Shown: positions 26,256 to 47,485 of the stretch, piece by piece
How positions within the stretch are numbered: the stretch's first letter is position 1
How the letters are laid out: the number at the start of each line of letters is the position of its first letter
From: a virus
Lineage: Duplodnaviria; Caudoviricetes
IMG/VR virus record: IMGVR_UViG_3300027804_002812
Span: 192,001-256,000 of that record
Direction: 5' to 3' (one strand)
DNA: 64,000 nt
Translations under genes and position numbers: made by a program
Notes under the pieces: generated by a model
Databases searched by the model: none
What the model saw: only the letters and a program-made list of their open reading frames with translations
What the model was told of the DNA's origin: nothing

Positions 26256-26269
26256 ATTATGTGATTGAT

Positions 26270-31910: not shown

Positions 31911-31995
31911 ATTGTTGTTTCAGTTTATAATAAATATTACAATATTGAAAAAAAATATATCATCACAAAAAAAAAGGGGTTGGGGTTATTAAACC

Positions 31996-33417
31996 TCAAC
32001 TTAGAAATAGTGTCGATTCATAGTCTCGTCTTCGGTCCAACGATGAATAGTTTATTCCAGTCTTTGCTCCAGTTGTCGGACCTTGACTTATATAAGCAGC
32101 AGCTGCCTCCATATCACCATCATCAATCGCATCTTTTATTTTTTGACCGTAATCTCTGGCGGTTATAAAATATGGACCAACATTATATGAGAAACTCATC
32201 AATGATGCTTTTTGTTTATCATTCAACCCATCCCAATTACTTACACCAAGTTGTTTGGCAATCAAAGGTGCAAATGTATTTTTTAATTGGTAATCCAAAG
32301 TTTCCTCAGCTTCTTCTTTTGTCCATCGAGTATCTGCGGTAACATCTTCTAATTTACCATTTACCAATTTCTTACTTGACCCATATCCCCCTCTCCATGT
32401 ACCTTCATCCTCAGAAGGTCTACTTGTAAAAGTTTCGAATTTTCTTATAAGTTGTTTTGACATTTCCAACCAATCACCTGTCAAAGATATTTTTTCCCCT
32501 CCCACTGTTGGGTCAGATAATTTATTTATGTCCTCAGAGGTAATCCCTTTTTGTTTCAACATATCAATCAGTTTATTCAACATCTCAGGAGTCGCCTTAC
32601 CCATAGGTTTTGAAGTACCTACCGCTGCCTTGGATAATCCTGTTGCCAAATCACTCAAATTACCTGAAGATATTGCAACGTGAACATGAGGAGTAATACC
32701 TCCACCTTGCATGATTTTACCAATTACATCACCTTGTTTTACTGTATCACCAACTTTTAGTGGAGAATCGATGTGGGTATAAAATACGTCTGGTCCATCA
32801 GTACTTTTGATTACAACTTGGTCTCCATATATTTTTTTGACTCCACTTTTAACAACATTGGAGTCCCCCCCTTTGAAAAGTTCGACAACTCCGTTGGTTA
32901 GTGAATAAACTTCCGTACCTACAGGAGCTGTAATGTCCCACGCATTATTATTATACCAACCTGATGCACTGTGGGTACCTTGACCTGGTGTACCAATTAT
33001 TCCACCACCTTGTGCAACCAATTTTACGGCTTCATTCATGGATTCATCAGTTCCCAAGTTTTCTTCAGTGAACTTATTAACTGCTGCAGCAGTCTCAGGT
33101 CCAAATAATCCATCAACACCATGAATTGGCAAATCATATCCAAGAAGAATCAAACCAATTTGCATTGATTCAACTTCTTTTTTGAATTCGTAACTACCTC
33201 GTTGTTGTTCAGAGATTCCACCACTTTGTGCCGCAGATTCCAATGTACTATAAAACTCATCTACATCATCACCAACCAAATCAGCTTTAGTCGGGTCATC
33301 TTCTTTTCTGTATCCCAAGTCTTTCAAAAATTTATCAACGAATTCTTGTTCAACAATTTGATTACCATACATCATGGAATGCATTCTCACCAATTCTTCG
33401 GTCAATGTTTTTTTCAT
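31996..33417 (-). CDS. Leader-tagged multidomain PG hydrolase: PG-binding + M23 peptidase + GH24 lysozyme
   Basis: DGLFGPETAAAV..F; H...WDI.AP.GT..Y, PHVHV (M23); LIRKFE..EG.W..GYG..QKASLMSFSYNVG..RRRDYE (GH24). Confidence 0.85.
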   Translation of the reverse strand: MKKTLTEELVRMHSMMYGNQIVEQEFVDKFLKDLGYRKEDDPTKADLVGDDVDEFYSTLESAAQSGGISEQQRGSYEFKKEVESMQIGLILLGYDLPIHGVDGLFGPETAAAVNKFTEENLGTDESMNEAVKLVAQGGGIIGTPGQGTHSASGWYNNNAWDITAPVGTEVYSLTNGVVELFKGGDSNVVKSGVKKIYGDQVVIKSTDGPDVFYTHIDSPLKVGDTVKQGDVIGKIMQGGGITPHVHVAISSGNLSDLATGLSKAAVGTSKPMGKATPEMLNKLIDMLKQKGITSEDINKLSDPTVGGEKISLTGDWLEMSKQLIRKFETFTSRPSEDEGTWRGGYGSSKKLVNGKLEDVTADTRWTKEEAEETLDYQLKNTFAPLIAKQLGVSNWDGLNDKQKASLMSFSYNVGPYFITARDYGQKIKDAIDDGDMEAAAAYISQGPTTGAKTGINYSSLDRRRDYESTLFLS

Positions 33418-33433
33418 AACAATAAATATACAA

Positions 33434-34705
33434 TTACAAAAGTTTGTTGAACTTAGTTATTCTATCCCATTCTTTTTTGGACAATGTGATATTGTGTTTG
33501 GTAATCCCATCATAGTTATAATCTTCCATGTATTTCTCCCAAATGAACTTTTCGAATTCAGGTTTGACCTTAACAAAATTACAATTAAACGCGACCTTAT
33601 TCCATAACATGATATATGAAATTAAATTTGGATGATGTCCATAATTTGGTAAAACTTCATCGACACCAAAATTATAATCCAATTTGTTTGGACTAATTTC
33701 CACATATCCAAGTTCGGTCATGTTATCCATTGCCCACTCATCAATACCACCTCTTCTAAACCTTTCAGATTCATACATCCAAAAGTTATCGAAATTTATT
33801 TGATCCATTTTGAATTTAATCTCAGGCATAATCTTTTCGATATCAGATTCGGGATTATTGATGGGATTAAAATTTGGACTCAATACCACACGATTACTAA
33901 TAATCTCATATTGTTGTCTTCCTCCATTAAATAATGGGTGGGTAATTACTCCACTTTTGGAGATATCCCAATCTGATAAGGTGGATTGCATGAACAAAAA
34001 ATTATATCTCAACTTATTTTTCTCCAAATAATATTGGGTTCGCAATATGTTATCAAAATAAGTTTTGATTTTATTTTCCAATGGGAATTCATGTTCAATT
34101 CTTGAAATGTCATCATGGAAAAATTCATAATCAGGTCCCAACTCTGAATAGGCATTATGACTGGTATGAGCAGGAATCATATAAATCCTATCTTCGATTT
34201 TACCCCAATTAGACCCATTCTTTGAACGGAATAACTTGAAATATTCATAAAAAAATTCCAAATCTTCTTTTACATCTCCATTGGTCAGAGTAATTCCACG
34301 TTGTATCTCATAAAATTCAAATCTACACATCGGCCCAAAATCGAACCCCTTAAATTCAAACTTATTAAAATCCAAACCATAATGATGCGGGGGATGGATG
34401 GCAAACCGATGCCATTGCGACCATTCTACCAAACAAAAAATATTCTCAGGTTTAACTCCCAACTTCAACAACCCGTCGACAACATACGTCAACGAATCAG
34501 ATTGCCAATCCGAACCCTGACTACCCATAGATAAATTGATAGATACTATCTTGTTCCCCTCAATGCACAACCAATCAACTTGTCCATATTCATCTTTCAA
34601 TCTTTCACCCTCAATCAAATAATTAAAGATATTGAATACATAATCTGCAAGTCGGCCATAACTACAACCGCTCGATACAACAAACTTATATTTAGAAAAA
34701 TCCAT
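33434..34705 (-). CDS. SGNH-like paralog 9 (long)
   Basis: SGCSY, NLSMGSQGS, GHHPN. Confidence 0.68.
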   Translation of the reverse strand: MDFSKYKFVVSSGCSYGRLADYVFNIFNYLIEGERLKDEYGQVDWLCIEGNKIVSINLSMGSQGSDWQSDSLTYVVDGLLKLGVKPENIFCLVEWSQWHRFAIHPPHHYGLDFNKFEFKGFDFGPMCRFEFYEIQRGITLTNGDVKEDLEFFYEYFKLFRSKNGSNWGKIEDRIYMIPAHTSHNAYSELGPDYEFFHDDISRIEHEFPLENKIKTYFDNILRTQYYLEKNKLRYNFLFMQSTLSDWDISKSGVITHPLFNGGRQQYEIISNRVVLSPNFNPINNPESDIEKIMPEIKFKMDQINFDNFWMYESERFRRGGIDEWAMDNMTELGYVEISPNKLDYNFGVDEVLPNYGHHPNLISYIMLWNKVAFNCNFVKVKPEFEKFIWEKYMEDYNYDGITKHNITLSKKEWDRITKFNKLL

Positions 34706-34740
34706 ATCAAATTATAAAAACGAATATAATATTTATCAAT

Positions 34741-35376
34741 ATGAAAAAATTATGGATAATAGGAGATTCATTCAGTACCAATTTTTATGAACCAAATGAC
34801 GCCGATAACTGTTGGAAAAATCTATACTGTAAACATAAAGGATACCATCCAAAGTTTTTTGGTGAATTTGTTTCAGAAGACCTCAATATGGATTATGAAG
34901 TTTTAACCAAAGGTATTTTTGACAACTATAAAATGATTGAACTATTCATAGACAACATGGATAGATTCAATGAAGGTGATATCGTATCCTTTGGATGGAC
35001 CGCAACTTCAAGAATAAGATTTGTAAATGAATCTACCAATCAATGGGAGGTAATAAACTCCTATGGAATGAAAGGGGATTATTTCCAAGGAATGGCAGTA
35101 AGCACACTCGCAGACATAGCCGCAAATAGATACCACAAATTATATAAAATTGAATTAATCAAGTGGGCAAAATTAATTAGTAAATCTTTACCTAATATTT
35201 CAATAATACATTGGACATGGACCAATAACTCATACTTCCGTTATGAAACAATATCTGACGAAACGGAAAAAAAATTAAATGATTTACATTGGTCTGAAAA
35301 CGGACACAGACAATTTGCGGATTGGTTTATTGGGGTTCATAATAAACAAATCGAAAATAAATGTTTTGACTTATGA
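34741..35376 (+). CDS. SGNH-like paralog 10
   Basis: IGDSF, DLHWSENGH; TATTTAT at about 34731. Confidence 0.75.
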   Translation: MKKLWIIGDSFSTNFYEPNDADNCWKNLYCKHKGYHPKFFGEFVSEDLNMDYEVLTKGIFDNYKMIELFIDNMDRFNEGDIVSFGWTATSRIRFVNESTNQWEVINSYGMKGDYFQGMAVSTLADIAANRYHKLYKIELIKWAKLISKSLPNISIIHWTWTNNSYFRYETISDETEKKLNDLHWSENGHRQFADWFIGVHNKQIENKCFDL

Positions 35377-35408
35377 TAAAAAAACCCACCGAAAAAAGGT
35401 GGGAGGAT

Positions 35409-36641
35409 TTATTTATACAAGATAAAATCATTTTTCCGATCTTTCAAATCAACAACTTGAAATTCGGTTGGAGTTATAGGATAAACAAGATAATCGACCG
35501 CTTCCTTATTTTTCTTTGATTCAAATCTTTTAGCATCTGATTCAGATGATTTGACTTGAATTGTTATAGCATCCTTACCTCTTCCCATAATCAAGTCAAC
35601 GGAAAAAATCATATCAATAAAATTGCCATTTCCTCCACGATATAAGAGTTTATATCCCTTATTCTCGAATGCCTTGGAAACGTCAGTTTCCATTTGGTCT
35701 CCATATTTGGAAAATTTTGTTGAATATTTGGTGAAGTTCATTAAGTCTGTTTTACTTTCCAAATATTTTTCGAACAACTGTTCCTTGAAATCTCCTTTAT
35801 ATTTTAGAAGAACTTTTTTCATGGTTTCCGTATCAGTTGTATTAGATATTGTATCATATATTTGGGTAGAGGCTTTACTTCCAAGATTTTTGGCTTTTTC
35901 CAAATAAGTGGATAAAAGATCTGCTAAATCAGAATAGTTAGTGTTCAATTTGTTAACATAATGCCATTTTCCATTTGGGTCCAAATTACCTTCATCGTCA
36001 ACATATACCAATTTTCTATCGTATATGTATTTAACAAAATATTTATATCTCCATTGAGTTACTTTTCCATATGAAACCAATATATTCGCACCTTTAATAT
36101 TATCCTCAATATCTTTTTGTTGAATGTTAAATGTTATTCCCGACAAAATATCACCTATCACTTTTTTAAGATTTAATCCCTTTTCATCTTCAAGCCAAGA
36201 TCCGAGAGAATTTAATTTGTTATATACACTTCCACCCAACACGTTTGGGATACTCTTGTTAATTTTTTCTTCTTCTTGTCGGGAAAGAATTTTATCAACC
36301 GCCTCTCTATTCTTGTTTTGGTATCCAATGCAACCAAATGGAATTTGCAACCCACCAAATTTTGTGATTACCATACGTTTACAAGCATATGAGCTCATAT
36401 CCAACTCAAGAGCATCATCACCAATTTTAATCTCCAAATATCCCTTATTACCATACAACTGAGATAAATCATTGGCAGTTAATTTACCTTCACCTCCATC
36501 AATAACAACAGGATTGTTCACATAATAAAAATTACCCTTTGAGCCCAACGAACTACCTTTGATGACAGCAATATTTACACCCGTCTGGATGACCTCAACC
36601 AAATGATTTAACTGTTCCTCCGTAACAATGAAATTTCTCAT
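35409..36641 (-). CDS. Leader-tagged protein with C-terminal PD-(D/E)xK nuclease-like domain
   Basis: MRNFIVTEEQL; E..V...F...G Y...D....VDL.......IQVKS. Confidence 0.7.
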   Translation of the reverse strand: MRNFIVTEEQLNHLVEVIQTGVNIAVIKGSSLGSKGNFYYVNNPVVIDGGEGKLTANDLSQLYGNKGYLEIKIGDDALELDMSSYACKRMVITKFGGLQIPFGCIGYQNKNREAVDKILSRQEEEKINKSIPNVLGGSVYNKLNSLGSWLEDEKGLNLKKVIGDILSGITFNIQQKDIEDNIKGANILVSYGKVTQWRYKYFVKYIYDRKLVYVDDEGNLDPNGKWHYVNKLNTNYSDLADLLSTYLEKAKNLGSKASTQIYDTISNTTDTETMKKVLLKYKGDFKEQLFEKYLESKTDLMNFTKYSTKFSKYGDQMETDVSKAFENKGYKLLYRGGNGNFIDMIFSVDLIMGRGKDAITIQVKSSESDAKRFESKKNKEAVDYLVYPITPTEFQVVDLKDRKNDFILYK

Positions 36642-36682
36642 ATATCAATAAATACCCCACCTATTAATATGGGGTTGGATAA

Positions 36683-37273
36683 TTAAAATCTTAAAATTCT
36701 TTCTTTGTTTTGAATATCTACGATGTGTAAATATATATCGTCAAGGTCTTCGCCTGATTCAATTTTGTCAATAACATCTTCCTTTTTATAAAGAGTGTTT
36801 CTAACAATATAGTCAATCATCTCTTCATCTGTGATTCCTTTAGGTTTTTCAGGTTCAGGAGTACACTCGTATTCTCTATCCGATGTGCCAATGTCTTCAA
36901 TAGATAACCCCGACTCTCCAACAATTTGTTCGAACTTAGGAACCATCGTCTCATCATACCATTCAAGAATCACATGCAAAACATATGACTTTCTTATGCT
37001 CAATAATTCTGAAAGAGTATCAACAAGACCTTTGGATACCATCAAATATCCTTGGTCAAATCTACCATCCTCAAAATAATAAATTGCGGTAATTGTTTCT
37101 TTTCCATCAAAACACCAATCCTCACGAAGATTTCCGTAATTACGTGCCTTCGGAATGACCTTACGTTTACCATTACCAATATATTGATTCATATATTTGA
37201 CAATAAAATTACTAATGGACTGACTACTCTTGTTAAGTCTTCTATATTGTTCTTCTGTTAGTATATATTTCAT
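36683..37273 (-). CDS. Leader-tagged protein (paralog-family domain plus extension)
   Basis: MKYILTEEQYRRL. Confidence 0.78.
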   Translation of the reverse strand: MKYILTEEQYRRLNKSSQSISNFIVKYMNQYIGNGKRKVIPKARNYGNLREDWCFDGKETITAIYYFEDGRFDQGYLMVSKGLVDTLSELLSIRKSYVLHVILEWYDETMVPKFEQIVGESGLSIEDIGTSDREYECTPEPEKPKGITDEEMIDYIVRNTLYKKEDVIDKIESGEDLDDIYLHIVDIQNKERILRF

Positions 37274-37274
37274 A

Positions 37275-37610
37275 TTAACTTTTTTTTATTTTGAACTCAG
37301 CCCAAGTGCTATAAGGAACAACTTGAGTACGTTCAACTCTCAGATTATATTTGCTTTCGAAATACTTTCCAAAAAAGTGACGAGCAGTACCTACGTCTAC
37401 CGAAAACATAGACATAACGTCCTTAATTAAATCCGTTAAAATGTATAAATCGTCAGTGAAGTTATGCCCTATTATCCCGTGTTCTTCACCAGGAAACGCA
37501 AAGACAGTATCAAGATACCTACCTCTCTTTTTCTTAATCCCCTTCAATCTACTATCCAAGTATTTGAATACAATACTCTCTAATCTACTTTCCGTGATGA
37601 TGTATTTCAT
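37275..37610 (-). CDS. ~110-aa paralog family member
   Basis: MKYIITESRLESIVFKYLDS. Confidence 0.8.
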   Translation of the reverse strand: MKYIITESRLESIVFKYLDSRLKGIKKKRGRYLDTVFAFPGEEHGIIGHNFTDDLYILTDLIKDVMSMFSVDVGTARHFFGKYFESKYNLRVERTQVVPYSTWAEFKIKKS

Positions 37611-37611
37611 A

Positions 37612-37992
37612 TTATTCTTTATCAAGTATTAAGTAAGTTCTGTCAAATCTATCATTATCAACCACACTACCAAACATACTTTTAATCCTCGGAGCATAAT
37701 CCACTTTCATGTTGTATCTACTTTCAAGATATTTCCCAATTACCTCAAGAACATCACCCTCTTTCATAGAAAACATAGTTTGTATTTCCTCAAAGAATGG
37801 AAAATAAATGTGTAAATAATTATCCCCTTTTTTATGATACTTATTCACCGCAAATAACCCAACATCTTTACCAGGAACGGAAAAAACAAAATCCGAAAAT
37901 TTCCCTTTCTTTATAACGGTTCCTTCCAGCTTACTATCCAAAAATTTGAATAAAACTTTTTCTAATTTACTTTCCGTAATGATGTATTTCAT
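37612..37992 (-). CDS. ~110-aa paralog family member
   Basis: MKYIITESKLEKVLFKFLDS. Confidence 0.8.
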   Translation of the reverse strand: MKYIITESKLEKVLFKFLDSKLEGTVIKKGKFSDFVFSVPGKDVGLFAVNKYHKKGDNYLHIYFPFFEEIQTMFSMKEGDVLEVIGKYLESRYNMKVDYAPRIKSMFGSVVDNDRFDRTYLILDKE

Positions 37993-38010
37993 ATCTTATA
38001 AATATCCCAA

Positions 38011-38169
38011 TCATTTATTACATTCACCCTTCTTTCCGCATACCTCACAGACATTCCCCTGTGAAGCACAAGTTCCCTTAAACTCACCTCCCTTAAGAAA
38101 TATCAATCTTACGGACATCAATATAAAAAATAAAGAAATAAATCCAATGGTTATTAGTAGTGTTATCAT
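38011..38169 (-). CDS. Small TM protein with 4 Cys (NqrM/DUF539-like)
   Basis: Not in track. MITLLITIGFISLFFILMSVRLIFLKGGEFKGTCASQGNVCEVCGKKGECNK; ATGA overlap with 38166..38528. Confidence 0.7.
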   Translation of the reverse strand: MITLLITIGFISLFFILMSVRLIFLKGGEFKGTCASQGNVCEVCGKKGECNK

Positions 38170-38528
38170 ATCCCATCTACTTTCAATGCTGAAAACTCAA
38201 AACCACAATTCCAAGTTGCAGAAGTGATATTCAAATTATATCTATTTTCAATATACCTTGCAATTGTTTTCAAAGATTCTTCCGATTGTAGAGAGAACAT
38301 GTTTTCCACCTCACGACCCAATAATAGAAAAACATATAATTTTCCTCCTTTATCAGTTTTTTCCCATCCCAATATTCCAAGTTCTTTATCTCCGTTAGGT
38401 GCCATTTTAGGAGAGATAAAAACAACATCCGAAAATTTTCCCTTCACAAGTTCGACACCTTCCAATTTACTATCCAAGAATTTGAATATGATATTTTCTA
38501 ACCGACTTTCCGTGATGATGTATTTCAT
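38166..38528 (-). CDS. ~110-aa paralog family member
   Basis: MKYIITESRLENIIFKFLDS. Confidence 0.8.
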   Translation of the reverse strand: MKYIITESRLENIIFKFLDSKLEGVELVKGKFSDVVFISPKMAPNGDKELGILGWEKTDKGGKLYVFLLLGREVENMFSLQSEESLKTIARYIENRYNLNITSATWNCGFEFSALKVDGI

Positions 38529-38529
38529 A

Positions 38530-38865
38530 TTAATAACTATCTACTTTTAACGGTTTCAAATTGAAAATACGCAAGTACTTGTTGGCATCCACCTTCAAAT
38601 TGTATCTACTTTCAACATACCTTCCGATAACATCAAGAACATCAGATTCATCCATTGAAAACACATTTTTAACTTCATCAACAATTTCGTAATAAGAGAA
38701 TAATTGATTAGATTTTTTCCATCCCATCAATCCAAATTCTTCACCAGGAAACACAAAGACAATATCAGAATAATCTCCTTTCTTGAGTTCAATACCCTCC
38801 AACTTCTCATTCAAAAATTTGAATATTAAGTTTTCCAATCTGCTTTCCGTGATGATGTATCTCAT
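38530..38865 (-). CDS. ~110-aa paralog family member
   Basis: MRYIITESRLENLIFKFLNE. Confidence 0.8.
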   Translation of the reverse strand: MRYIITESRLENLIFKFLNEKLEGIELKKGDYSDIVFVFPGEEFGLMGWKKSNQLFSYYEIVDEVKNVFSMDESDVLDVIGRYVESRYNLKVDANKYLRIFNLKPLKVDSY

Positions 38866-38887
38866 AACTTCTTCTTTGAATAGGGGG

Positions 38888-39205
38888 TTAATAATATATT
38901 GAGTAATAAACCGCCTTAATGGGATTATCAGGATATTTTTTTTCAAACCATCTTTGAATTAAATCTTCAGTCTCAGAAAAATTCCTGTTGAACAATCCAC
39001 TAATTGTTAAGAACAAATGCTGACTAACTCCCAAGTGTTGGTCAAGAAACTGAAATATCATATTTTCATTTTTATCAACAAGGTCGAAGTCCTCCTCCGT
39101 CCCAATTGTATGACTTGAATCTCTTTCGATAAGTTCCCCCACCACTAAAGTAATATACTTATCAACCAATTTTACAAGTCTATCTTCTGAAATAATATAA
39201 TCCAT
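38888..39205 (-). CDS. ~100-aa paralog family member
   Basis: MDYIISEDRL..WFEKKY. Confidence 0.78.
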   Translation of the reverse strand: MDYIISEDRLVKLVDKYITLVVGELIERDSSHTIGTEEDFDLVDKNENMIFQFLDQHLGVSQHLFLTISGLFNRNFSETEDLIQRWFEKKYPDNPIKAVYYSIYY

Positions 39206-39227
39206 AATTTATAAATACCAATAAAAT

Positions 39228-39255
39228 AAAAAACCCCACCTATAAAGATGGGGTT
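39228..39255 (-). terminator. Intrinsic terminator (CCCCACC family)
   Basis: A-run-ACCCCACC-tataaa-GATGGGGT; near-copies at about 31321, 36655, 41210, 43320 and 44483. Confidence 0.7.
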
Positions 39256-39279
39256 ATACTATAGATTGTGTTTTCGAAA

Positions 39280-39909
39280 TTACTTACCAGTTCTTGAAGT
39301 ATATCCTGTTGACGGTCTTTCCCCTTTTGCTGTCCGTATTAAAGCCTCTCGTTCTAGTTCCTCTTTTTCACCCGGTTTCAACGGTGGATAGGGTGTATCG
39401 TCTGAGGGTTGGAAGTTCGTTACCAAATTTCTAATAGGTCTCATAATTCTAGCCCATTCAGATTCATTAGAAATATCAGAACTCAAATCCGTGTATAAAT
39501 CAACATTGTAACTACTTTTATAAGCCTTTACCAATGCACAAAATTCACTAAATGATTTCAAATTTTCAAATGCTTTATAGATTAATTCTTCATTCGTTCC
39601 AACCCCTTGTACCGCATCTCTTATCATATCAGCAAACTGATTCACACGACCCCTATCTCTGTAAGAAGAATTTTCTTTGTTACATATATCACAAAACTCC
39701 TTAACTTTTTTGTCTGAATCTCCAAATCCAGTTAGGACTTGATTCAGCATACCCATCAAGTCTTGTTCATTAACCAAAGGTTTCACATCCCCAAGTTTCG
39801 AATTTAACAATTTAGAGAAACTCTCAGTCATAACCTTCATCCCTCCTGTATGTTGTTCACGGATGGAGTTCTTCTCCTGTTCCGATAAATCGTTTAATAT
39901 ATGTTTCAT
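39280..39909 (-). CDS. Leader-tagged protein with annexin-like repeat
   Basis: ADMIRDAVQGVGTNEELIYKAF...LVKAYKSSYNVDLYTDLSSDIS. Confidence 0.75.
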   Translation of the reverse strand: MKHILNDLSEQEKNSIREQHTGGMKVMTESFSKLLNSKLGDVKPLVNEQDLMGMLNQVLTGFGDSDKKVKEFCDICNKENSSYRDRGRVNQFADMIRDAVQGVGTNEELIYKAFENLKSFSEFCALVKAYKSSYNVDLYTDLSSDISNESEWARIMRPIRNLVTNFQPSDDTPYPPLKPGEKEELEREALIRTAKGERPSTGYTSRTGK

Positions 39910-39943
39910 AATTTTTAATTTATTATAAATATCTCAAACATTC

Positions 39944-40002
39944 AAAAAAAAGGGGTTGGGGATTTCCACGACCGAAGGGAGAAAGCGGATCCGAATACAA
40001 AT
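39944..40002. repeat. Intergenic cassette element, copy 1
   Basis: AAAAAAAGGGGTTGGGGATT-N4-ACGACCGAAGGGAGAA; 3' 40 nt identical to copy 2. Confidence 0.9.
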
Positions 40003-40030
40003 AAAAAACCCCACCTTTATGGGGTGGGGT
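40003..40030 (-). terminator. Intrinsic terminator
   Basis: ACCCCACC-tttatg-GGGTGGGG, identical to 40710..40737. Confidence 0.75.
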
Positions 40031-40049
40031 AAATAACAGATTGAATTTT

Positions 40050-40676
40050 TTATGCTAAGTTAGATTGTTGTGGTTTGCCGGTACTAGCATATGTTCCTTT
40101 TGGAACTGATGATCCACCAGAACCTACAGTACAAAAATCTTTTTTCAACTTATCAGTAAAATATTTTGAATATAGAGCAATCCCCTGAGGACCCGTAAAA
40201 AGTTTGGTGTCAAATGGGATTAATTGGTCGGGTTTATCACATGAGTAGCTCAAAAAATAAACATGGTCACTATTACCAACTCGGTAGTCTGTTCCATCAC
40301 TTAGTTTAACCTCTTCGTATTTATATGCAATAACTATTTTTCCAAGTTTATCTTTAGAGTCACCTAACCCACTATACATATAATCAATTCTAATTTGTCT
40401 TTTGAACTTTCTATTTTCACGATCAGTGTAAAGATTTACCGTATTTCCCTTGAAGGATTCAAATTTTTCTTCACTAAACGCATTGACTTTGTCTTGAGGA
40501 GTATCACCAGAGATTTCAGGTATCGCTTTGGACATCGGAGGGTTAATTTTGGTTTTTGTTCCAGGGTTTTCACCAGTTTGAGTCACCGTTGTTTGAACTT
40601 GCTCACTCATAAGTCGTTTCTCTAATCTCTGATTGACTTCTTGAATGTGTCTGATTTTACTATAACTTCTATTCAT
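40050..40676 (-). CDS. Leader-tagged hypothetical protein
   Basis: MNRSYSKIRHIQEVNQRLEKRLMSE, shared with 42591..43283. Confidence 0.8.
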   Translation of the reverse strand: MNRSYSKIRHIQEVNQRLEKRLMSEQVQTTVTQTGENPGTKTKINPPMSKAIPEISGDTPQDKVNAFSEEKFESFKGNTVNLYTDRENRKFKRQIRIDYMYSGLGDSKDKLGKIVIAYKYEEVKLSDGTDYRVGNSDHVYFLSYSCDKPDQLIPFDTKLFTGPQGIALYSKYFTDKLKKDFCTVGSGGSSVPKGTYASTGKPQQSNLA

Positions 40677-40763
40677 AATATTGTATTTCCAATAAATATC
40701 ATTAAACACAAAAAAACCCCACCTTTATGGGGTGGGGAGATATTAACTTCAATACTTAATATA

Positions 40764-41168
40764 TTATTGAGGTTGTTGAGGTGCTTGTGCTCTTGCAATT
40801 GCTTGTGCCAAAGCATCAAGTGGTGCCAATACATTGGAAATTGCCGGTAAATATGGTTTGAACGATTCCGTATTTTGATATTGAGAAACAGCTTTTTTAA
40901 TAGTATCAGGAAGATTACCAAGTTGTCTTCTGATTTTCAAAATGTCATAAATTGCATTTATTTCATTTTGTTGTGCCTGACTTGTTGCTCGGTTTGTTTG
41001 TCTCAAATCTTGTCTTGCATCTCTTCTTGCGTCCCTTGCATCTCGAACACCTGCTCTAGCGGCATCAAGTCCTTGTTGTGCGGCTATTTGTTGACTAGTT
41101 TGTTCTTGTAATGTTTTTTTAACCAATCTTGCCAAATCAGCTTCGGTCATTCTTATAATTTTTCCCAT
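40764..41168 (-). CDS. Leader-tagged coiled-coil protein
   Basis: MGKIIRMTEADLARLVKKTLQE; ARDA repeats. Confidence 0.8.
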   Translation of the reverse strand: MGKIIRMTEADLARLVKKTLQEQTSQQIAAQQGLDAARAGVRDARDARRDARQDLRQTNRATSQAQQNEINAIYDILKIRRQLGNLPDTIKKAVSQYQNTESFKPYLPAISNVLAPLDALAQAIARAQAPQQPQ

Positions 41169-41239
41169 AATAGTTTCAGTTTACAATAAATATCACAATA
41201 CTGAAAAAAAACCCCCACCTATTAAGATGGGGTTATCAA

Positions 41240-41827
41240 TTAAATTATTTCCCAATCGATTTCACCGTATTGGTCGTATTCATCATTCTCATCGTGAGTG
41301 GAACCGTCAATATCTTCATGAAGTTTTCTATAAGCCTCACAAGAACTTCTTGCCATCACAGTATGAGTCCAAGTCTGAACGCAACTCCTTGATGCTTGAA
41401 TTGTATATTCTGTTTCCTCATTCTCTTCCCATCCTTCTTCATCCTCACAATCATCATCAACAACATTCTTAACATCCTCAGGAACTCTACCAAACTTATC
41501 GATTGATTCCATCAGACTATTGCGAAACGCAATCAAATCTTTCAAAGAATAAATCTTAAAGGAATAACTTGATGCGGGAGAACCATTAACCCCAATCTCA
41601 ACATATTCCTTTGTCCCATCAGATCCGTCCCAATGATAAATGGAAAGACCCGATGCATTATCGAATTCCAAAGTTGAATCATTAACATACAAATAATTCA
41701 AGTTCCAATTATCAGGATTGGAATCCTTCATTTCCTGATACTCTTTTTCCAAGTCTCTAATCTGAGACAATGCTTTGGAATACTTCTTCTCAAAAGACTT
41801 CTTCCATTTATCTGTAAATTCTGCCAT
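41240..41827 (-). CDS. Acidic hypothetical protein
   Basis: C-terminal domain resembles 54691..54939. Confidence 0.75.
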   Translation of the reverse strand: MAEFTDKWKKSFEKKYSKALSQIRDLEKEYQEMKDSNPDNWNLNYLYVNDSTLEFDNASGLSIYHWDGSDGTKEYVEIGVNGSPASSYSFKIYSLKDLIAFRNSLMESIDKFGRVPEDVKNVVDDDCEDEEGWEENEETEYTIQASRSCVQTWTHTVMARSSCEAYRKLHEDIDGSTHDENDEYDQYGEIDWEII

Positions 41828-41903
41828 AACAAATTTTTTTATAATGATAAACAAAATTTTTTAATAAAAAAACCCCTCCTTTATGGGGAGGGGTTATATT
41901 ACA

Positions 41904-42581
41904 CTAATTTTTATCACTTAAGGCAACCCTGAGTTTATTTACATCTTCGTCCTCTTTTTTGGCATCGAAATAGTTTTTTGTAATATCATATCCAACACTA
42001 TATCCTACACCCACTCCCAAGTATTTTAATCCTGTTTTACCCAAATTTGCTAATGATGTTTTTATAGATGAAGATAATGGTTTTGATGCAGCTTGTTGAG
42101 CCAAAGTTTTGACGTGAGTGTCCAAAGAACTCTTAACAAAATCGGTTCCTTTTTTTATACCCTCAATGACGGCCAACTCTACTGAATCAGTAATTTTATC
42201 ACCTTTAGCTATTTTTTCAGCTAAGGCAGACATTCCTTTAACTCCTAGTTGTTTGATTGCAGGAATTCTATTTATAATAGCTAAAGCACCAGGCATCAAA
42301 GAAAATATTGCCACCAAACCTGCGGTTTTCGTGTCACCTTCTTTGTAATATAATGAGGCGTCCCCCAATCCGATTCCTGCTGATAAGAATGGACCAACGA
42401 AAGGTACAAAAGAACTTGCAAAGGCCAAAAGAGGTAAAAAGAAATGAGCATCTTTCACCATTAGTTCGCCCATCTTCATAATTGCCTCTGGTTTTTGGTA
42501 GTCATAACCACCTACAGGCCCTAAACCTATTGGTTGCTCAATGAGTAAATTATATTGACGTTCGGAAATAATATATTTCAT
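41904..42581 (-). CDS. Leader-tagged protein with hydrophobic hairpin domain
   Basis: MKYIISERQYNLLIE; SFVPFVGPFLSAGIGLGDA.LY.KEGD...GL..IFSLMP. Confidence 0.8.
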   Translation of the reverse strand: MKYIISERQYNLLIEQPIGLGPVGGYDYQKPEAIMKMGELMVKDAHFFLPLLAFASSFVPFVGPFLSAGIGLGDASLYYKEGDTKTAGLVAIFSLMPGALAIINRIPAIKQLGVKGMSALAEKIAKGDKITDSVELAVIEGIKKGTDFVKSSLDTHVKTLAQQAASKPLSSSIKTSLANLGKTGLKYLGVGVGYSVGYDITKNYFDAKKEDEDVNKLRVALSDKN

Positions 42582-42590
42582 GAAAAAAAA

Positions 42591-43283
42591 TTATTTAGTA
42601 ATAATATCCGCAATCGCGTCATCAAATTTTACAATAGCATCATCAAGATTCTGTTTGAAAATTTGAAATACCCTTTTGTTTCCCGGATCTAATTGTAAAG
42701 TTAAATCAAGATCACCTAATGATTTTCTAGCCCTCTTCAAAGCCAAATAGATATCGGCTAAATCTACAGCCTGTCCCTTCGGTGTTTGGAGTTTGTCAAG
42801 ATTTCTTGCCAAGTCATCTCCAACGTATTTGAGTCTAAGGAAAGCATTAGTTGCCACATCATTACCATAGGGTAATTTTGGTTGAGGTAAGGTAGACATA
42901 ATATTTTTGAAGTCTCTTAAGGCTACAACTACTTCATCTCTTACAGGAGACAAAAATCGAGTCAAAACATCTGACATTTTAAGCGTACCAAGTTTCGACA
43001 ATAATCTTGCGGTACTACCCGATGCCCCTGCCTTCACCAAACGAGAAATCATTTCGTCCGCAGTTTCTGGTTTTGGAGGAGCAATCCATGGCTTTGACGT
43101 AGTACCCATGGCTTTTTTAACAAGGTTTTTACCTCCTTGAACTAAACCTTTAGCCAATCCTGTAATTGCGGGAACAATTTGTTCGTTAACGTCTCCTTCG
43201 GTGATTACATTCTCAACCAATCTTTTTTCTAATCTTTGGTTGGCTTCTTGAATATGTCTGATTTTACTATAACTTCTATTCAT
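42591..43283 (-). CDS. Leader-tagged hypothetical protein
   Basis: MNRSYSKIRHIQEANQRLEKRLVE..VITE..VNE. Confidence 0.8.
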   Translation of the reverse strand: MNRSYSKIRHIQEANQRLEKRLVENVITEGDVNEQIVPAITGLAKGLVQGGKNLVKKAMGTTSKPWIAPPKPETADEMISRLVKAGASGSTARLLSKLGTLKMSDVLTRFLSPVRDEVVVALRDFKNIMSTLPQPKLPYGNDVATNAFLRLKYVGDDLARNLDKLQTPKGQAVDLADIYLALKRARKSLGDLDLTLQLDPGNKRVFQIFKQNLDDAIVKFDDAIADIITK

Positions 43284-43351
43284 AACTTTGTATTTCCAAT
43301 AAATATCATACGGCACAAAAAAACCCCACCTAAAAAGATGGGGTAGGATAA

Positions 43352-43834
43352 TCAATCTCTTGGAATTCTAATCTTCTCAACTCCACGATTTTCTTTCATA
43401 AATCTAATATAATCATCAAGCAAAGATTTTACCTCTTCAAGAACACCAGCGTCTTTGGCAACAGCGAATAGATTAAAATAACGATTATTATCGTTGTGAA
43501 TTTCCAAATAGTTATTGTAAAGATTGAAAGCAAATTTACCAGTTCCGAATTTCTCTCTAATTTCGGGATTTTTAATCATAATCATACTAACATCCGATTG
43601 TCTATCAATATATCCCTGAAAAGTAGATTCCCCCTTGTTGCCAGTCACACACCACTTGGTGTCAGATCCATATTTACAAGACGCTGTAAATGTCAATGGA
43701 ACAACTTGTAAAAAATTTTCTGTATCCGATATAACAATTCTTTCATCTTTGGAAATCTTATATTTTGTCTCATCAATCACTCGTCTAACCAATCTTGTTA
43801 AATCTGACTCGGTTAATCTTACAACTTTTTTCAT
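43352..43834 (-). CDS. Leader-tagged hypothetical protein
   Basis: MKKVVRLTESDLTRLVRRVIDE; ASCKYG..TKWCVT. Confidence 0.8.
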   Translation of the reverse strand: MKKVVRLTESDLTRLVRRVIDETKYKISKDERIVISDTENFLQVVPLTFTASCKYGSDTKWCVTGNKGESTFQGYIDRQSDVSMIMIKNPEIREKFGTGKFAFNLYNNYLEIHNDNNRYFNLFAVAKDAGVLEEVKSLLDDYIRFMKENRGVEKIRIPRD

Positions 43835-43852
43835 AATGTATTTTCAGTTCAT

Positions 43853-44398
43853 TTATTGTAAAAGTTCATCAAAATCGTCCCTCATATTTTTTTGTCTTTC
43901 GATTTCGTCCAAGAAAAATTCATAAATGTAGGCATCAACCTCACCCAAATCCAATCCTGCGCAATCTGGGAATGCATCAGAATTTACGAGTTCCTCCAAA
44001 TAATTGATAAATCTCTCTCGACAATCCTCAGTATTTTCAGGAGTTTCATTGTTGTTCCACACGTAAAGATCCCCACCTTCGTGGTTGACATAATTTCCAT
44101 TTTCATCAAATTCAACCTCGGATTGTTCAAACATGAACTCTATGTAAGATCTAAGACATTCAAGTTCATCATCCATAAAATCTTCCGAATCTCCTGTCAC
44201 CGGAACTTTAGTCATCTCAACATCAGGATTATCCAATATAAATTTTTCGTCATCAGTTAAAGATTCAATCCCCTGAGAACTAATCTTATCCAAGATAGCG
44301 TCAATCATATCTTGATTCTTCAATCTTTTTGCCTCAGTAATCATTTTCTTAACCAATGATACCAACTCAGACTCTGTTAACCTTAAAACCTTTTTCAT
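43853..44398 (-). CDS. Leader-tagged acidic protein with DUF6576-like motif
   Basis: MKKVLRLTESEL; IDAILDKISSQGIESLTDDEKFIL. Confidence 0.78.
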   Translation of the reverse strand: MKKVLRLTESELVSLVKKMITEAKRLKNQDMIDAILDKISSQGIESLTDDEKFILDNPDVEMTKVPVTGDSEDFMDDELECLRSYIEFMFEQSEVEFDENGNYVNHEGGDLYVWNNNETPENTEDCRERFINYLEELVNSDAFPDCAGLDLGEVDAYIYEFFLDEIERQKNMRDDFDELLQ

Positions 44399-44420
44399 AT
44401 CAATAAATATTCAACATTCC

Positions 44421-44478
44421 AAAAAAGGGGTTGGGGATTAGAACGACCGAAGGGAGAAAGCGGATCCGAATACAAATA
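44421..44478. repeat. Intergenic cassette element, copy 2
   Basis: AAAAAAGGGGTTGGGGATTAGAACGACCGAAGGGAGAAAGCGGATCCGAATACAAATA. Confidence 0.9.
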
Positions 44479-44512
44479 AAAATCCCCACCTAATAAGATG
44501 GGGTTGGATAAT

Positions 44513-44878
44513 TCATATTATGTAATTATTGACATCCCCTCCATTTTTTTCTATAGAGTTGATTACTTGATAATATTTCTCATCACTCCAATCATTTTGA
44601 CTATCTTGTACATATGGAATACAATCGGGTAAAGGATGTTTGATTGCTTCCAATCTCCACGGATTTAATTCAATTTGTTCGTCAGTTAAGTTTTCAAGTG
44701 TAATTACACTACAATCACCTTCCCAATTTGGTTCAGCAACTCCACCTTGGCCATCACCAGGTTTTGTAACAAATATAATATTGTTGTCAACAAGTTTTTG
44801 GATATCAAAAGTCATACGAGAATTATCCATTCCCATCATTATCTCGTGTATTCTTTTTATGTTCTCTTGTAAGTTCAT
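44513..44878 (-). CDS. Leader-tagged hypothetical protein
   Basis: MNLQENIKRIHEIMMG. Confidence 0.78.
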   Translation of the reverse strand: MNLQENIKRIHEIMMGMDNSRMTFDIQKLVDNNIIFVTKPGDGQGGVAEPNWEGDCSVITLENLTDEQIELNPWRLEAIKHPLPDCIPYVQDSQNDWSDEKYYQVINSIEKNGGDVNNYII

Positions 44879-44906
44879 AATGTTTTTTGTTTATAGATAA
44901 ATAGTC

Positions 44907-44944
44907 AAAAAAGGGGTTGGGGATTGGAACGACCGAAGGGAGAA
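44907..44944. repeat. Intergenic cassette element, copy 3
   Basis: AAAAAAGGGGTTGGGGATTGGAACGACCGAAGGGAGAA. Confidence 0.9.
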
Positions 44945-44950
44945 GACGGA

Positions 44951-45592
44951 TTAGGATGGATGGGCAACCCAGCTCTTTCCTTTTATTTCAGGAATCTTTC
45001 CTTGCTCATATAATTTCATCAAGGCAATAAGACGATTCCATCCTTCGTTCCATTTATACATGCCATCAACCATTTCAACAACAAAAGGTTCATTGTCAGT
45101 CAAGGTTTCAACACCATCTTTTAATGCCCTTCTCATCTGAACTTCAATACGTTCCTTACCACCTTCAACGGATTCTTTGTAAGGAATGAATTTCATTGTT
45201 TCAGGATGAATTTGGTCAGGGGTAACAGAAATTGTTTCCAAACTTATTTTGGAAAACTTATTTTTGTATCTGTCAACCCTCTCTTCCATTGTGACAAATT
45301 CATCAGGACCAACTTGCATATTTTTTGGATCCAAATCTATAAAATAATGACTAGGATTATCCTTATTTGGGGGAAGAAGAGGAAACATCATTTCTTTAAT
45401 TGCCTCCACAGGAAAATCACTTTCTCCCGCAATACAAGAAAATATTTTTGAAAGTTCGTCCCTACCATATTTCTTCCCTGGCTCATAGTCAGATGGATAA
45501 CAATCCGTTTCTTCTTCAGGTTGAATGTCCTCATCCTCTTTTAGAATCCCCATCAACTCTTTAAGTCGATATATGTTTTCGTTTAAGTTCAT
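44951..45592 (-). CDS. Leader-tagged protein with ParB/Srx-like motif
   Basis: MNLNENIYRLKELMGILKE; PFVVEMVDGMYKWNEGWNRLIAL. Confidence 0.7.
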   Translation of the reverse strand: MNLNENIYRLKELMGILKEDEDIQPEEETDCYPSDYEPGKKYGRDELSKIFSCIAGESDFPVEAIKEMMFPLLPPNKDNPSHYFIDLDPKNMQVGPDEFVTMEERVDRYKNKFSKISLETISVTPDQIHPETMKFIPYKESVEGGKERIEVQMRRALKDGVETLTDNEPFVVEMVDGMYKWNEGWNRLIALMKLYEQGKIPEIKGKSWVAHPS

Positions 45593-45613
45593 ATTCATAA
45601 ATATCAATTATTC

Positions 45614-45652
45614 AAAAAAAGGGGTTGGGGATTGGAACGACCGAAGGGAGAA
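45614..45652. repeat. Intergenic cassette element, copy 4
   Basis: Same core as copy 3. Confidence 0.9.
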
Positions 45653-45670
45653 AACGAATCGACAGGTTAA

Positions 45671-46441
45671 TTACAAATAAAGAAGTTCTTTAATACGGAT
45701 GATTTCTTCTTGCAATTTTTCATCAACCAATGATACGTTGCCTATCACTTGTGTATCTTCAGGAAAATCCAACATAAGTTCAGGAATGTGTCCATCTCCG
45801 ATGAATGCAACTCCTCCGTTCATCAATTTATTCTTTAGATTCTCTCTCCTTAATTTAGTTCCTTGTTTGGCATAATGAGATAAACTCCCCTCGGGTCCAC
45901 CAGTTTTTACATCATAATTATCCCACATCAAACTCTCACCTTTTTTCAAAAAGTTAATTATATTTTCGGGTGTTGGTTCGGCAGATAATTCTTCTTCTGA
46001 GAAATTATTATCCAATAAAGTTTCGAAATCCGCGATGTTAGAGACAGATAAACTATTTTGTGTTGCAATTCCTTGATTGGCAGCATTTACAATCACATCT
46101 TTGACAGTATCTCCTTGTACACCAAGCAATTTATTCAATGTTTCTTTGTTTGCCTCAATATTCGAAAACATTACATAACCATTATAGAACCCCAAATCCA
46201 AATCATCGAATGTTCCGTTATTTTTTGCAGATATACCCAATGAGTTTAGGAAACTTCTTTCTCTCCCTTCACCACCTCCACAGTTGTCTTCTCCACAACC
46301 TTCGAAATAAAACCCATTCCCACCCGATTTTTTGATATATTCTATTAATTCGGGATTTGAAATGGTACCAACTGAAGGAGCATTATGGTCTGAAGGTATT
46401 ACCACACCATTTCCTAGTCTTATAATTTCAGTATAACTCAT
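45671..46441 (-). CDS. Hypothetical protein with leader-like motif at its C-terminus
   Basis: Ends KLQEEIIRIKELLYL; AFIGDGHIPEL. Confidence 0.75.
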   Translation of the reverse strand: MSYTEIIRLGNGVVIPSDHNAPSVGTISNPELIEYIKKSGGNGFYFEGCGEDNCGGGEGRERSFLNSLGISAKNNGTFDDLDLGFYNGYVMFSNIEANKETLNKLLGVQGDTVKDVIVNAANQGIATQNSLSVSNIADFETLLDNNFSEEELSAEPTPENIINFLKKGESLMWDNYDVKTGGPEGSLSHYAKQGTKLRRENLKNKLMNGGVAFIGDGHIPELMLDFPEDTQVIGNVSLVDEKLQEEIIRIKELLYL

Positions 46442-46477
46442 TGTATTATATTTTTACAACAATAAATATCTATCATC

Positions 46478-46527
46478 AAAAAAAGGGGTTGGGGATTAGA
46501 ACGACCGAAGGGAGAACGGGGCGGTAT
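46478..46527. repeat. Intergenic cassette element, copy 5
   Basis: Core followed by CGGGGCGGTAT, shared with copy 6. Confidence 0.9.
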
Positions 46528-46544
46528 TCGAATATCCCCACCTA

Positions 46545-46829
46545 TTAATTAACAAACATTTTCCCCAACTCTTCACCAAGTCCCTCCACCACAATGGGTT
46601 CACCGAACTTAACCTCATGGGAGATGTACTCATAGAGAGAATGCTCATTGCTCTGAGCCTCCACCATCTTGATAAGAGCATTTTTCAAATCCTCCTTATA
46701 AGCATACATCACCAAATCGGAATCAACAGGAAATGAAAAATCCACCCCACCCTTCGGCTTCCAATAAGGAATATTGGAACCAGAATAATTCTCGTAGTAT
46801 TGAGCGGAAACTAAAATAGAAATCATCAT
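46545..46829 (-). CDS. Hypothetical protein
   Basis: Follows a Bacteroidota promoter. Confidence 0.75.
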   Translation of the reverse strand: MMISILVSAQYYENYSGSNIPYWKPKGGVDFSFPVDSDLVMYAYKEDLKNALIKMVEAQSNEHSLYEYISHEVKFGEPIVVEGLGEELGKMFVN

Positions 46830-46855
46830 ATCGTATAGAGGTTATCGTTGAAGTA

Positions 46856-46886
46856 CAAAGATACAATAATTTTCATACCACACAAA
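46856..46886 (-). promoter_or_regulatory. Bacteroidota promoter
   Basis: Minus strand TTTG-N19-TATCTTTG. Confidence 0.8.
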
Positions 46887-46894
46887 ATATTTTC

Positions 46895-46953
46895 AAAAAA
46901 AAGGGCTGGGGATTTCCACGAACGAAGTGAGAACGGACGGGGCGGTATACAAA
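46895..46953. repeat. Intergenic cassette element, copy 6 (variant)
   Basis: AAAAAAAAGGGCTGGGGATTTCCACGAACGAAGTGAGAA; CCGAAGG changed to ACGAAGT. Confidence 0.85.
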
Positions 46954-46957
46954 TAAC

Positions 46958-47485
46958 TCACTTTACCAAATGAGGATATTTCTCCATCATTTTATTCACC
47001 TTTGTAATTGTATTAATACAAACCCCCAACTCTTCAGATATCCTATTATGCCTCCATCCCAACTTTTTTAATTCAACAATTTTCTTAATCTTTACTTTTT
47101 CAAAAAATAATTCAGGACTTTCACTTGTACCAACTTTTCTACCTGTATAAATTCCAAGTTCCTTTGCCCTTTTTATTCCCTTCATTCTCATCTCCTTAGA
47201 GTCTCTATTTATCACCAATTCCACAATCCCCAATAGATACTGCTGAATATAAAACGGTATAAACTTACACCTATATCCCTTCGAAATATTTTCCTTTAAT
47301 GGAAGAAATTGAATATTTCTCAAATCTGCAATATACTCAGGGGGTACGTTCAATCTATATCCAAATGAAACAGGAAACTTGTGGTCTATCGTCATTCCCT
47401 CAGGAACAATAATTCCTTTATAATTCAAATTTTGATTAGTATACCAATCAACCTTTCTTCTATAACTATTCATTGAAATTTCCAT
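46958..47485 (-). CDS. HNH-like nuclease fused to resolvase-type HTH
   Basis: TIDHKFPVS.G..NIQFLPLKENISKG; GIKRAKELGIYTGRK..RISEELGVCINTITKV. Confidence 0.65.
   Translation of the reverse strand: MEISMNSYRRKVDWYTNQNLNYKGIIVPEGMTIDHKFPVSFGYRLNVPPEYIADLRNIQFLPLKENISKGYRCKFIPFYIQQYLLGIVELVINRDSKEMRMKGIKRAKELGIYTGRKVGTSESPELFFEKVKIKKIVELKKLGWRHNRISEELGVCINTITKVNKMMEKYPHLVK

Follow-up and report, generated by a model that had tools for sequence, protein, structure and literature searches.

Annexins are known from textbooks as Ca2+ and membrane proteins of eukaryotes; their prokaryotic history is obscure and their origin is not agreed. In canonical annexins, four (or eight) repeats form a curved membrane-binding disc, and the ligands of the type II Ca2+ site are backbone carbonyls of an (M/L)-K-G-x-G-T loop together with a bidentate acidic residue approximately 38 residues downstream. 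A survey of bacterial annexins, which left phage unmentioned, described approximately 30 proteins from 17 species, most of them aquatic Bacteroidetes (Kodavali et al., 2014; PMC3894181). Our literature search found no publication on a phage or viral annexin. In bacteriophage T4, the prohead protease gp21 cleaves after L/I-x-E, and a 10-residue capsid-targeting sequence (CTS) suffices to load foreign proteins into heads for delivery to the host (PMC9026906). Here we analyzed a 64,000-nucleotide (nt) stretch of DNA (the window), which comprises bases 192001-256000 of a 326,291-bp phage record that is 100% complete according to CheckV, and a gene within it, P0001, whose product carries an annexin repeat behind an N-terminal leader. 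This is a known domain in an undescribed setting: phage-encoded, present as a single repeat, joined to a modular leader with a protease-type end, and with relatives directed to the cell envelope.

Coordinates without a label are positions in the window, and those labelled G000 refer to the whole 326-kb phage genome. The P0001 gene and the parts of its product are as follows.

39280..39909, minus strand: whole P0001 gene, 209 amino acids (aa), from the open reading frame (ORF) and its translation; leader, two-helix extension, one annexin repeat and disordered tail
39766..39909, minus strand: class-C leader, aa 1-48, MKHILNDLSEQEKNSIREQHTGG MKVMTESFSKLLNSKLGDVKPLVNE, candidate capsid-targeting propeptide ending in V-N-E; low predicted local distance difference test (pLDDT) values
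39655..39765, minus strand: family-specific extension, aa 49-85, helices 48-60 and 65-78; AlphaFold2 (AF2) pLDDT 85-90
39418..39654, minus strand: annexin repeat, aa 86-164, helices 86-101, 107-115, 120-134, 138-145 and 149-164; from Pfam, PDB profile, Foldseek and VIA
39595..39606, minus strand: AB-loop G102-V-G104-T105, annexin type II Ca2+-site loop; G102, G104 and T105 invariant in homologues
39475..39477, minus strand: D145, acidic residue that caps the Ca2+ site, at T105+40; from conservation and hidden Markov model (HMM) alignment
39283..39417, minus strand: C-terminal tail, aa 165-209, rich in Pro, Lys, Glu and Thr, predicted to be disordered; pLDDT 41-54

The start codon is backed by the homologues, all of which begin at MKHILN. 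The first-pass annotation, made from the letters alone, had placed an annexin-like repeat at 39465-39640. Its peptide exactly matched residues 93-147 of P0001 on the minus strand (approximately nt 39469-39633), and the plus-strand frame at 39465-39640 contains many stops. When P0001 was compared with the Pfam annexin family PF00191, residues 91-150 matched positions 1-59 of the 66 in the HMM (E = 9.5e-6), and the score of 26.1 bits, marginal if taken alone, exceeded the curated cut-off of 25 bits. A six-frame scan of the whole genome against PF00191 detected a single place (27.4 bits, E = 1.1e-6), and none of 14 control genomes contained a match over the cut-off. Further, 31 of 34 homologues individually matched PF00191 at E<=0.01 (best, 1.1e-8). 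When the family profile was searched against the PDB, 88 sequences matched and every one of the 60 listed was an annexin; single repeats reached independent E-values of 1.4e-5, and annexin VI totaled 126.7 bits over its six repeats.

The predicted structure agreed with these matches. The template-free AF2 model of P0001 had pLDDT values of 85-94 over residues 50-165. The top 50 Foldseek matches were annexins throughout, with E-values from 5e-3, which are modest because the query comprises one short repeat; the superposition on 1yii was 2.2 A over 72 columns with 26% identity. When the model was aligned with 48,161 chains using VIA-align, the nine best were annexins, giardins or annexin-A2 fusion constructs (Z 7.0-8.8), which superposed at 2.3-2.6 A over approximately 74 residues (model residues 85-162). 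The best superpositions, on giardin and annexin repeats, had Z 8.8 and 2.3 A over 74 residues, and the isolated domain 1 of annexin I was among the nine (Z 7.5). Astrotactin-2 (Z 6.9) and a cotton annexin (Z 5.7) came next, and the remaining rows were at or below 5.2. The Pfam, family-profile and fold tests are partly independent of one another. We concluded that P0001 almost certainly carries a genuine annexin repeat, as the first-pass annotation, which had named the Pfam HMM and structure prediction as checks, had proposed. The protein contains one repeat and the whole genome contains one, so the tetrad core of canonical annexins was not found; P0001 is thus an annexin-repeat protein like the bacterial single-domain forms and not a canonical annexin. 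In the core profile search, the extension in front of the repeat matched only short phage-type proteins and not multi-repeat annexins, and conservation counts among the relatives marked G63, S65, V69 and C76 as its conserved residues.

The first-pass annotation had also pointed to a GxGT Ca2+-binding loop and a downstream acidic residue, and both proved to be conserved across the family. The loop of P0001 reads V100-Q-G102-V-G104-T105-N-E107. G102, G104 and T105 were invariant in 34 homologues chosen by E-value, some of them just 40-45% identical, and E107 was conserved in 91 of 92 relatives. The position of D145 was occupied by D in 89 and by E in 2 of the 92; it lies at T105+40, which represents a one-residue insertion, and aligns with the cap Glu of the annexin VI repeats (KSEL) in HMM alignments. 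Judging from these residues, the type II Ca2+ site of P0001, formed by the GVGT loop and D145, is predicted to be intact. Cysteines were conserved at C76 in the extra helix (88/92) and at C124 in helix C (87/92), a pair that would fit an oxidising compartment. In one long-form relative (L060:2133-3197, minus strand; genome G002), the annexin AB loop contains a 7-residue insertion (...VNDSYGFQGGTDE), so that its Ca2+ site is probably altered; the same protein includes approximately 80 residues of Gly/Ala-rich hydrophobic sequence.

Relatives of P0001 numbered 990 at E<=0.01 among 90%-identity clusters; all were metagenomic, and many shared the leader alone. When a core-only profile (A2) was searched against 1.84 billion 50%-identity representatives, 2,331 proteins matched at E<=1e-3 and 760 at E<=1e-10. 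Approximately 61 of the best 150 core matches were short proteins (130-400 aa) in which the whole profile matched once, and this short single-match population is the phage family. The rest of the best 150, which we regard as cellular annexins, were long (up to 3,341 aa), contained 3-14 repeats and matched over the annexin part alone. The leader was not found in the genomes of 185,579 cellular species. In the same set the core, scanned as alignment A3 since the broader A2 was too divergent for that purpose, yielded six weak loci and no close counterpart. Three of the six were true multi-repeat annexins, in Exilibacterium, Streptomyces and a metagenome-assembled genome (MAG) of Solirubrobacteraceae. 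When we sampled 401 genomes from the phylum to which a Bacteroidales MAG belongs, two exceeded the Pfam cut-off. Three of five large relatives of the phage carry the annexin core, which is thus an accessory domain.

The genome encodes an S77 gp21-type prohead protease (PF03420, 78 bits; G000 140410-141126), a gp23-type major capsid protein (MCP; PF07068, 209 bits) and a T4-type portal (phrog_213, 224 bits), the genes of which are arranged in T4 order together with an acidic scaffold-like protein. The phage is an uncultured T4-type jumbo phage from freshwater. Its MCP reads ...HLINE/ASS..., which we take to be the same type of position at which T4 gp23 is cut. Among 50,697 cultured-phage records (INPHARED), the MCP gene had distant DNA matches only to Flavobacterium myophages (vB_FspM_immuto), which fits a Bacteroidota host; the host is probably a freshwater member of that phylum. 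DNA and tblastn searches of the same records detected no relative of the locus, of P0001 or of the class-A leader.

The class-C leader (residues 1-48) precedes a dozen or more payload families that are unrelated to one another, and its conservation on these was at least 90%. Payload lengths clustered at 118-137, 210, 237 and approximately 270 aa, and some of the payloads have PG_binding_1 or OmpA-like domains. In 197 fetched proteins, the conservation ended sharply at KP[LMI][VL]-x-E, followed usually by Q and sometimes by A, G or E. In P0001 the leader ends at V-N-E48, and LSE10, IRE18 and MTE29 are candidate sites upstream. Nearly all leaders end in hydrophobic-x-Glu, and those outside class C are 7-35 aa long; the other classes are as follows.

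Class A leader: MKKxxR[LM]TE[SA]DLxRLV...E[QTA], nine genes genome-wide
Class B leader: MKYIITE..., eight genes
Class D leader: MNRSYSKIRHIQE..., two genes
Class E leader: MVQPKYSPEEAL...; a further leader class: MKKLYFLDEEEK...

The S77 protease was present in 8 of 10 contigs with the leader or the annexin core (the other two are 23% and 61% complete) and in all 4 leader- or core-carrying records that were at least 88% complete. By analogy, the T4 CTS is the most likely model for the function of the 48-residue leader. Residues 24-48 of P0001 resemble a second, class-B-like leader unit (MKVMTES...), and the class-C leader may consist of two tags in tandem, which together contain four candidate x-E sites.

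Leaders of these kinds recur around P0001. An array of approximately 20 stand-alone cassettes with unrelated payloads occupies 31371-48031 (minus strand) and 52351-52635 (plus strand), and each of its products begins with one of four leader classes (MKKxxRLTESDL..., MKYIITE..., MKHILN... and MNRSYSKIRHIQE...). At 37275-38946 (minus strand) are four tandem paralogues of 111-126 aa that start MK/RYIITES[RK]LE... and have no family match; related genes are located at 36683, 38888, 41904 and 52351. Three or four leader-tagged genes lie beside the MCP gene in the head module (G000 133153-136650); one of them, a 392-aa ORF, has an N-terminus (...ISNEERNRILSLHES...LMSEQ) that resembles the class-C and MKKLYFL leaders.

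In the relatives, the annexin core follows leaders of classes A, C, a shortened C2, D and E (MVQPKYSPEEAL...) as well as the MKKLYFLDEEEK... class. In 25 of 39 single-repeat representatives, leader and core are separated by an uncharged stretch, Gly/Ala-rich or hydrophobic, of 18 or more residues, and 7 of the 39 have a DG.FG..T motif after the core; the tails are rich in Pro, Thr and Gln and vary in length. Long forms occur in L051-L056, L059 (G001) and L060 (G002), and those in L052-L056, L059 and L060 comprise a leader, a Gly-zipper or transmembrane segment, the annexin repeat, a Gly linker and a Cys-rich module. This module was recognized neither by Pfam nor by BLASTP. Its AF2 model had pLDDT of approximately 90 over residues 10-60 and matched 19 chains at Z>=2 using VIA. 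Almost all of the top 15 were of the PG_binding_1 type (Z 5.1-6.8), including endolysins, SleB/SleC, L,D-transpeptidases and phiKZ gp144, with 4xxt superposing at 2.4 A over 59 residues. The top five Foldseek matches were also peptidoglycan (PG)-binding domains, and the PDB sequence matches, three in all, were each to a PG-binding protein, weak but consistent. The models thus support a PG_binding_1-type fold for the module, as a fold-level assignment. One relative matched P22_gp7 over the leader and Gly-zipper at 21.4 bits, under the cut-off of 28 and a mere hint.

The same leaders carry PG_binding_1 and OmpA-like payloads. At G000 175238-176755 (minus strand; L061:1239-2756), a 505-aa protein has a class-E leader (MVQPKYSPEEAL... 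ending in ILVSEQ) followed directly by PG_binding_1 (51 bits), with no annexin; its gene occupies the position of the long annexin form of G001 and G002 in a conserved 5-gene neighbourhood. A 473-aa protein encoded at 31996-33417 (minus strand) combines PG_binding_1, peptidase M23 and phage lysozyme domains behind an N-terminus that resembles a leader (MKKTLTEE...IVEQ). It might serve as an endolysin or be carried in the virion as a wall-degrading enzyme. The payloads of relatives and neighbours suggest that the leaders carry envelope-directed cargo. From its sequence context, the annexin repeat appears to be tethered at a membrane in most relatives and to lie between membrane and wall, in the periplasm, in some. 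The concentration of Ca2+ is high in freshwater and in the periplasm and submicromolar in the cytoplasm, so the periplasm would suit an annexin site; it would suit the conserved cysteine pairs as well. The first-pass annotation had proposed Ca2+-dependent membrane binding by an injected protein during entry or membrane resealing. The membrane part gained indirect support from the relatives with a Gly-zipper or hydrophobic segment, some of them with the PG-binding fold, and P0001 itself is probably directed to the envelope or a membrane. Injection is plausible but unproven, and entry or resealing stays speculation.

The elements that surround P0001 are as follows.

39925..39932, minus strand: ATATTTAT, promoter-like motif of late type, 16 nt before the P0001 ATG, common to head genes
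39232..39255, minus strand: intrinsic-terminator-like hairpin (10-pair stem) with T-run, 3' end of the cassette
40008..40030, minus strand: terminator-like hairpin of the upstream gene, 5' edge of the cassette
Approximately 39945-39990, 44400-44440, 44890-44930, 45610-45650 and 46450-46490, minus strand: copies of an intergenic repeat

The order is the terminator of the upstream gene, the intergenic repeat, ATATTTAT, the gene, and its own hairpin with T-run; P0001 is a self-contained stand-alone cassette gene. The intergenic repeat (...TCCCTTCGGTCGT..AATCCCCAACCCCTTTTTT) lies between the upstream terminator and ATATTTAT of several cassettes. The ATATTTAT 8-mer precedes 44 of 380 ORFs, and composition predicts well under 1%. 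Further, TATTTAT or the full ATATTTAT occurs within 80 nt upstream of the portal, protease, scaffold and several other head-module genes; because it precedes head genes, we infer that ATATTTAT is the late promoter of this phage lineage. Searches of PHROGs detected no match for P0001 or for most of the neighbouring proteins.

We infer packaging, cleavage, ejection, a periplasmic site, Ca2+ and lipid binding, and a biological role for P0001 as follows. P0001 would be synthesized late from its stand-alone cassette, and its leader would load it into the prohead, where the S77 gp21-type protease would remove the leader after V-N-E48 and expose QDLMGMLNQVLTGFGDSDK as the mature N-terminus. The mature annexin protein (approximately residues 49-209; 18 kDa, acidic, pI 5.2) would leave the particle with the DNA at infection and bind, through Ca2+ bridges, to acidic lipid head groups of a periplasm-facing host membrane. 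The two family-specific helices would buttress the repeat, the disordered tail would follow, and the related proteins would additionally possess a glycine-zipper insert and a wall anchor. At the entry site, the protein might anchor, stabilise or seal. That the protein is injected seems plausible because of the swappable CTS-like leader with its hydrophobic-x-Glu end, the gp21-type protease and the late-type promoter motif. Further, P0001 lacks both a signal peptide and a membrane segment, so arrival from outside would be the simplest route to Ca2+ and the periplasmic face of a membrane; this is our chief reason for favouring delivery over action inside the infected cell. The complete chain, from late synthesis through packaging, cleavage and ejection to Ca2+-bridged envelope binding, is tentative, and we give it somewhat less than an even chance.

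Several observations weigh against this chain. Neither P0001 nor the leaders had a match among the 50,697 INPHARED records, so no cultured relative with the leader was found there. Compared with the 10-aa tag of T4, the leader is long (48 aa), and it ends in V-x-E rather than L/I-x-E, so the match to T4 is good but imperfect; moreover, hydrophobic-x-Glu is a short motif that easily arises by chance. The label late for ATATTTAT derives solely from its presence before head genes. P0001 has S143 and S147 where 60-61 of 92 relatives have D, so that its D-E loop is less acidic, and the acidic run of most relatives, DLDGDIDxE, is denser than its own. A single repeat without oligomerisation may bind membranes weakly. 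P0001 has no membrane segment and no wall-binding domain, and its envelope role is therefore extrapolated from relatives. Finally, for the wall-binding payloads that lack a signal peptide, a role as lysis proteins that escape through holin lesions is just as possible. The charge of the payloads does not discriminate between hypotheses, since the pI of mature P0001 is 5.2 and those of its neighbours range from 4.1 to 10.1.

In a different explanation, P0001 would be an envelope protein made and used inside the infected cell, where it would act late on the membrane or wall, for example in lysis timing, superinfection exclusion or envelope remodelling. The leader would then be a cytoplasmic sorting, oligomerisation or regulatory tag and not a capsid address, and T4 Imm, Sp and RI would be analogues. 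The long forms, with a charged leader, hydrophobic segment, annexin repeat and PG-binding fold, do resemble N-in/C-out anchored periplasmic proteins, a late-type promoter would fit lysis genes too, and wall-binding payloads without signal peptides resemble endolysins. However, P0001 and 14 of the 39 relatives have neither a membrane segment nor a signal peptide and would be left in the low-Ca2+ cytoplasm, where an annexin site would be useless. Further, action from within accounts neither for approximately 20 unrelated proteins with leaders that all end in a protease-type site nor for tagged genes in the head module, and a glycine zipper is a typical feature of segments inserting from outside. 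We consider this explanation rather unlikely. The late-type promoter is also compatible with an adhesin on the virion surface or tail, in which the repeat would bind outer-membrane lipids via Ca2+, which freshwater would supply to an external site, and the Pro/Thr-rich tail, variable among relatives, would serve as a stalk, perhaps glycosylated. The membrane-inserting segments and wall-binding domains of the relatives, however, point below the outer membrane, and the leader also occurs on enzymes such as the M23/lysozyme protein, which are unlikely surface decorations. In P0001 itself, no domain of a fibre, decoration protein or baseplate could be recognised, and PHROGs yielded no structural match. 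We consider an adhesin improbable.

The annexin fold might instead be kept as a compact helical scaffold for contacts with the scaffold protein or other cargo, with no Ca2+ or lipid function. Canonical annexins need four repeats for the membrane-binding disc and P0001 has one, some of its loop acidity is lost, and the loop of the L060 relative is disrupted by an insertion. Yet exactly the Ca2+-ligand positions are near-invariant across proteins that are otherwise 40-50% identical, and the repeat is recurrently paired with membrane segments; we consider a purely structural role improbable. The leader itself allows one more reading, secretion by a host peptidase-containing ATP-binding cassette exporter (PCAT), with the first 23 residues (39841-39909) as a bacteriocin-type double-glycine leader. 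The sequence LSEQEKNSIREQHTGG is similar to LSxxELxxIxGG leaders, with G22-G23 conserved at 90% or more. In a true leader of this type, conservation would not be expected to continue 25 residues past GG as it does here; the other leader classes have no GG, and typical GG cargo is far smaller than the payloads here, which are folded domains. Searches for a GG-leader family match in NCBIfam and for a C39 peptidase (PF03412) in the phage genome were both negative, so PCAT export of P0001 found no support, and we regard its probability as close to negligible. Loading into the head followed by delivery thus remains the reading that we prefer for P0001.

The window has a GC content of approximately 33%, and its genes are small and tightly spaced. 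A 764-aa ORF at 17815-20109 (minus strand) matched an HNH/homing endonuclease (phrog_559, 95 bits). A run of paralogues with an SGNH-hydrolase-like motif, G[CD]S[FY], near the N-terminus is located at 24722-27675, 29581-30390 and 33434-34705 (minus strand).

A phage-only family of single repeats with conserved Ca2+-site residues would bring viruses into the history of annexins and would supply a minimal one-repeat model for annexin biochemistry. The joining of the repeat to membrane segments, wall-binding domains and swappable leaders constitutes a concrete proposal for how a myovirus might use Ca2+-bridged lipid binding at the host envelope, and P0001 is an easily assayed cargo for deciding if the widespread leaders are capsid-loading tags. 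In the broadest form, T4-type jumbo phages of aquatic Bacteroidota would run a large interchangeable system of address tags and cargo, by which proteins destined for the envelope are loaded into the head and in which annexin repeats are one of the standard cargo domains. These would be the first viral annexins, and phages would be the main prokaryotic reservoir and vehicle of the repeat; we consider this unlikely as a whole. If true, Ca2+-bridged membrane grips would be used at DNA entry, and the phage reservoir could explain the patchy distribution of annexin repeats in bacteria.

Among the systems with which P0001 can be compared, the ejection proteins of P22 (gp7, gp16 and gp20) and T7 (gp14-16) are virion-carried and have membrane-inserting or wall-active parts, as proposed here for the P0001 family. 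They differ in that there is no significant homology, no annexin repeat is known in them, and the present phage is a T4-type myovirus. With the eukaryotic annexins (A4, A5, A6 and giardins; PF00191), P0001 shares the five-helix repeat of approximately 70 residues, the GxGT AB loop followed by (D/N)E and an acidic cap approximately 39 residues downstream, at 20-26% identity and with superpositions of 2.2-2.6 A. In contrast to these proteins, P0001 has one repeat and not four or eight, Gln in place of the Lys before the loop, two additional N-terminal helices with a conserved Cys pair, a 48-aa leader and a disordered tail.

The bacterial annexins, which include a single-domain protein of Cytophaga hutchinsonii, likewise comprise repeats from the prokaryotic world, some single-domain or fused to other modules, and are concentrated in aquatic Bacteroidetes, the likely host phylum of this phage (PMC3894181). 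Here, in contrast, the repeat belongs to a large phage-only family with no close cellular counterpart. The internal proteins IPI-III and Alt of T4, which carry a CTS and are processed by gp21 (PMC9026906), share with the P0001 system an N-terminal tag on unrelated payloads, a hydrophobic-x-Glu end, an encoded gp21-type protease, and genes arranged as independent cassettes in a variable locus. Unlike the 10-aa tag of T4, the candidate tags described here are 48 aa long in class C and 7-35 aa in the others and fall into several interchangeable classes; and their payloads, with annexin, PG-binding, OmpA-like and M23/lysozyme domains, appear to be directed to the envelope.

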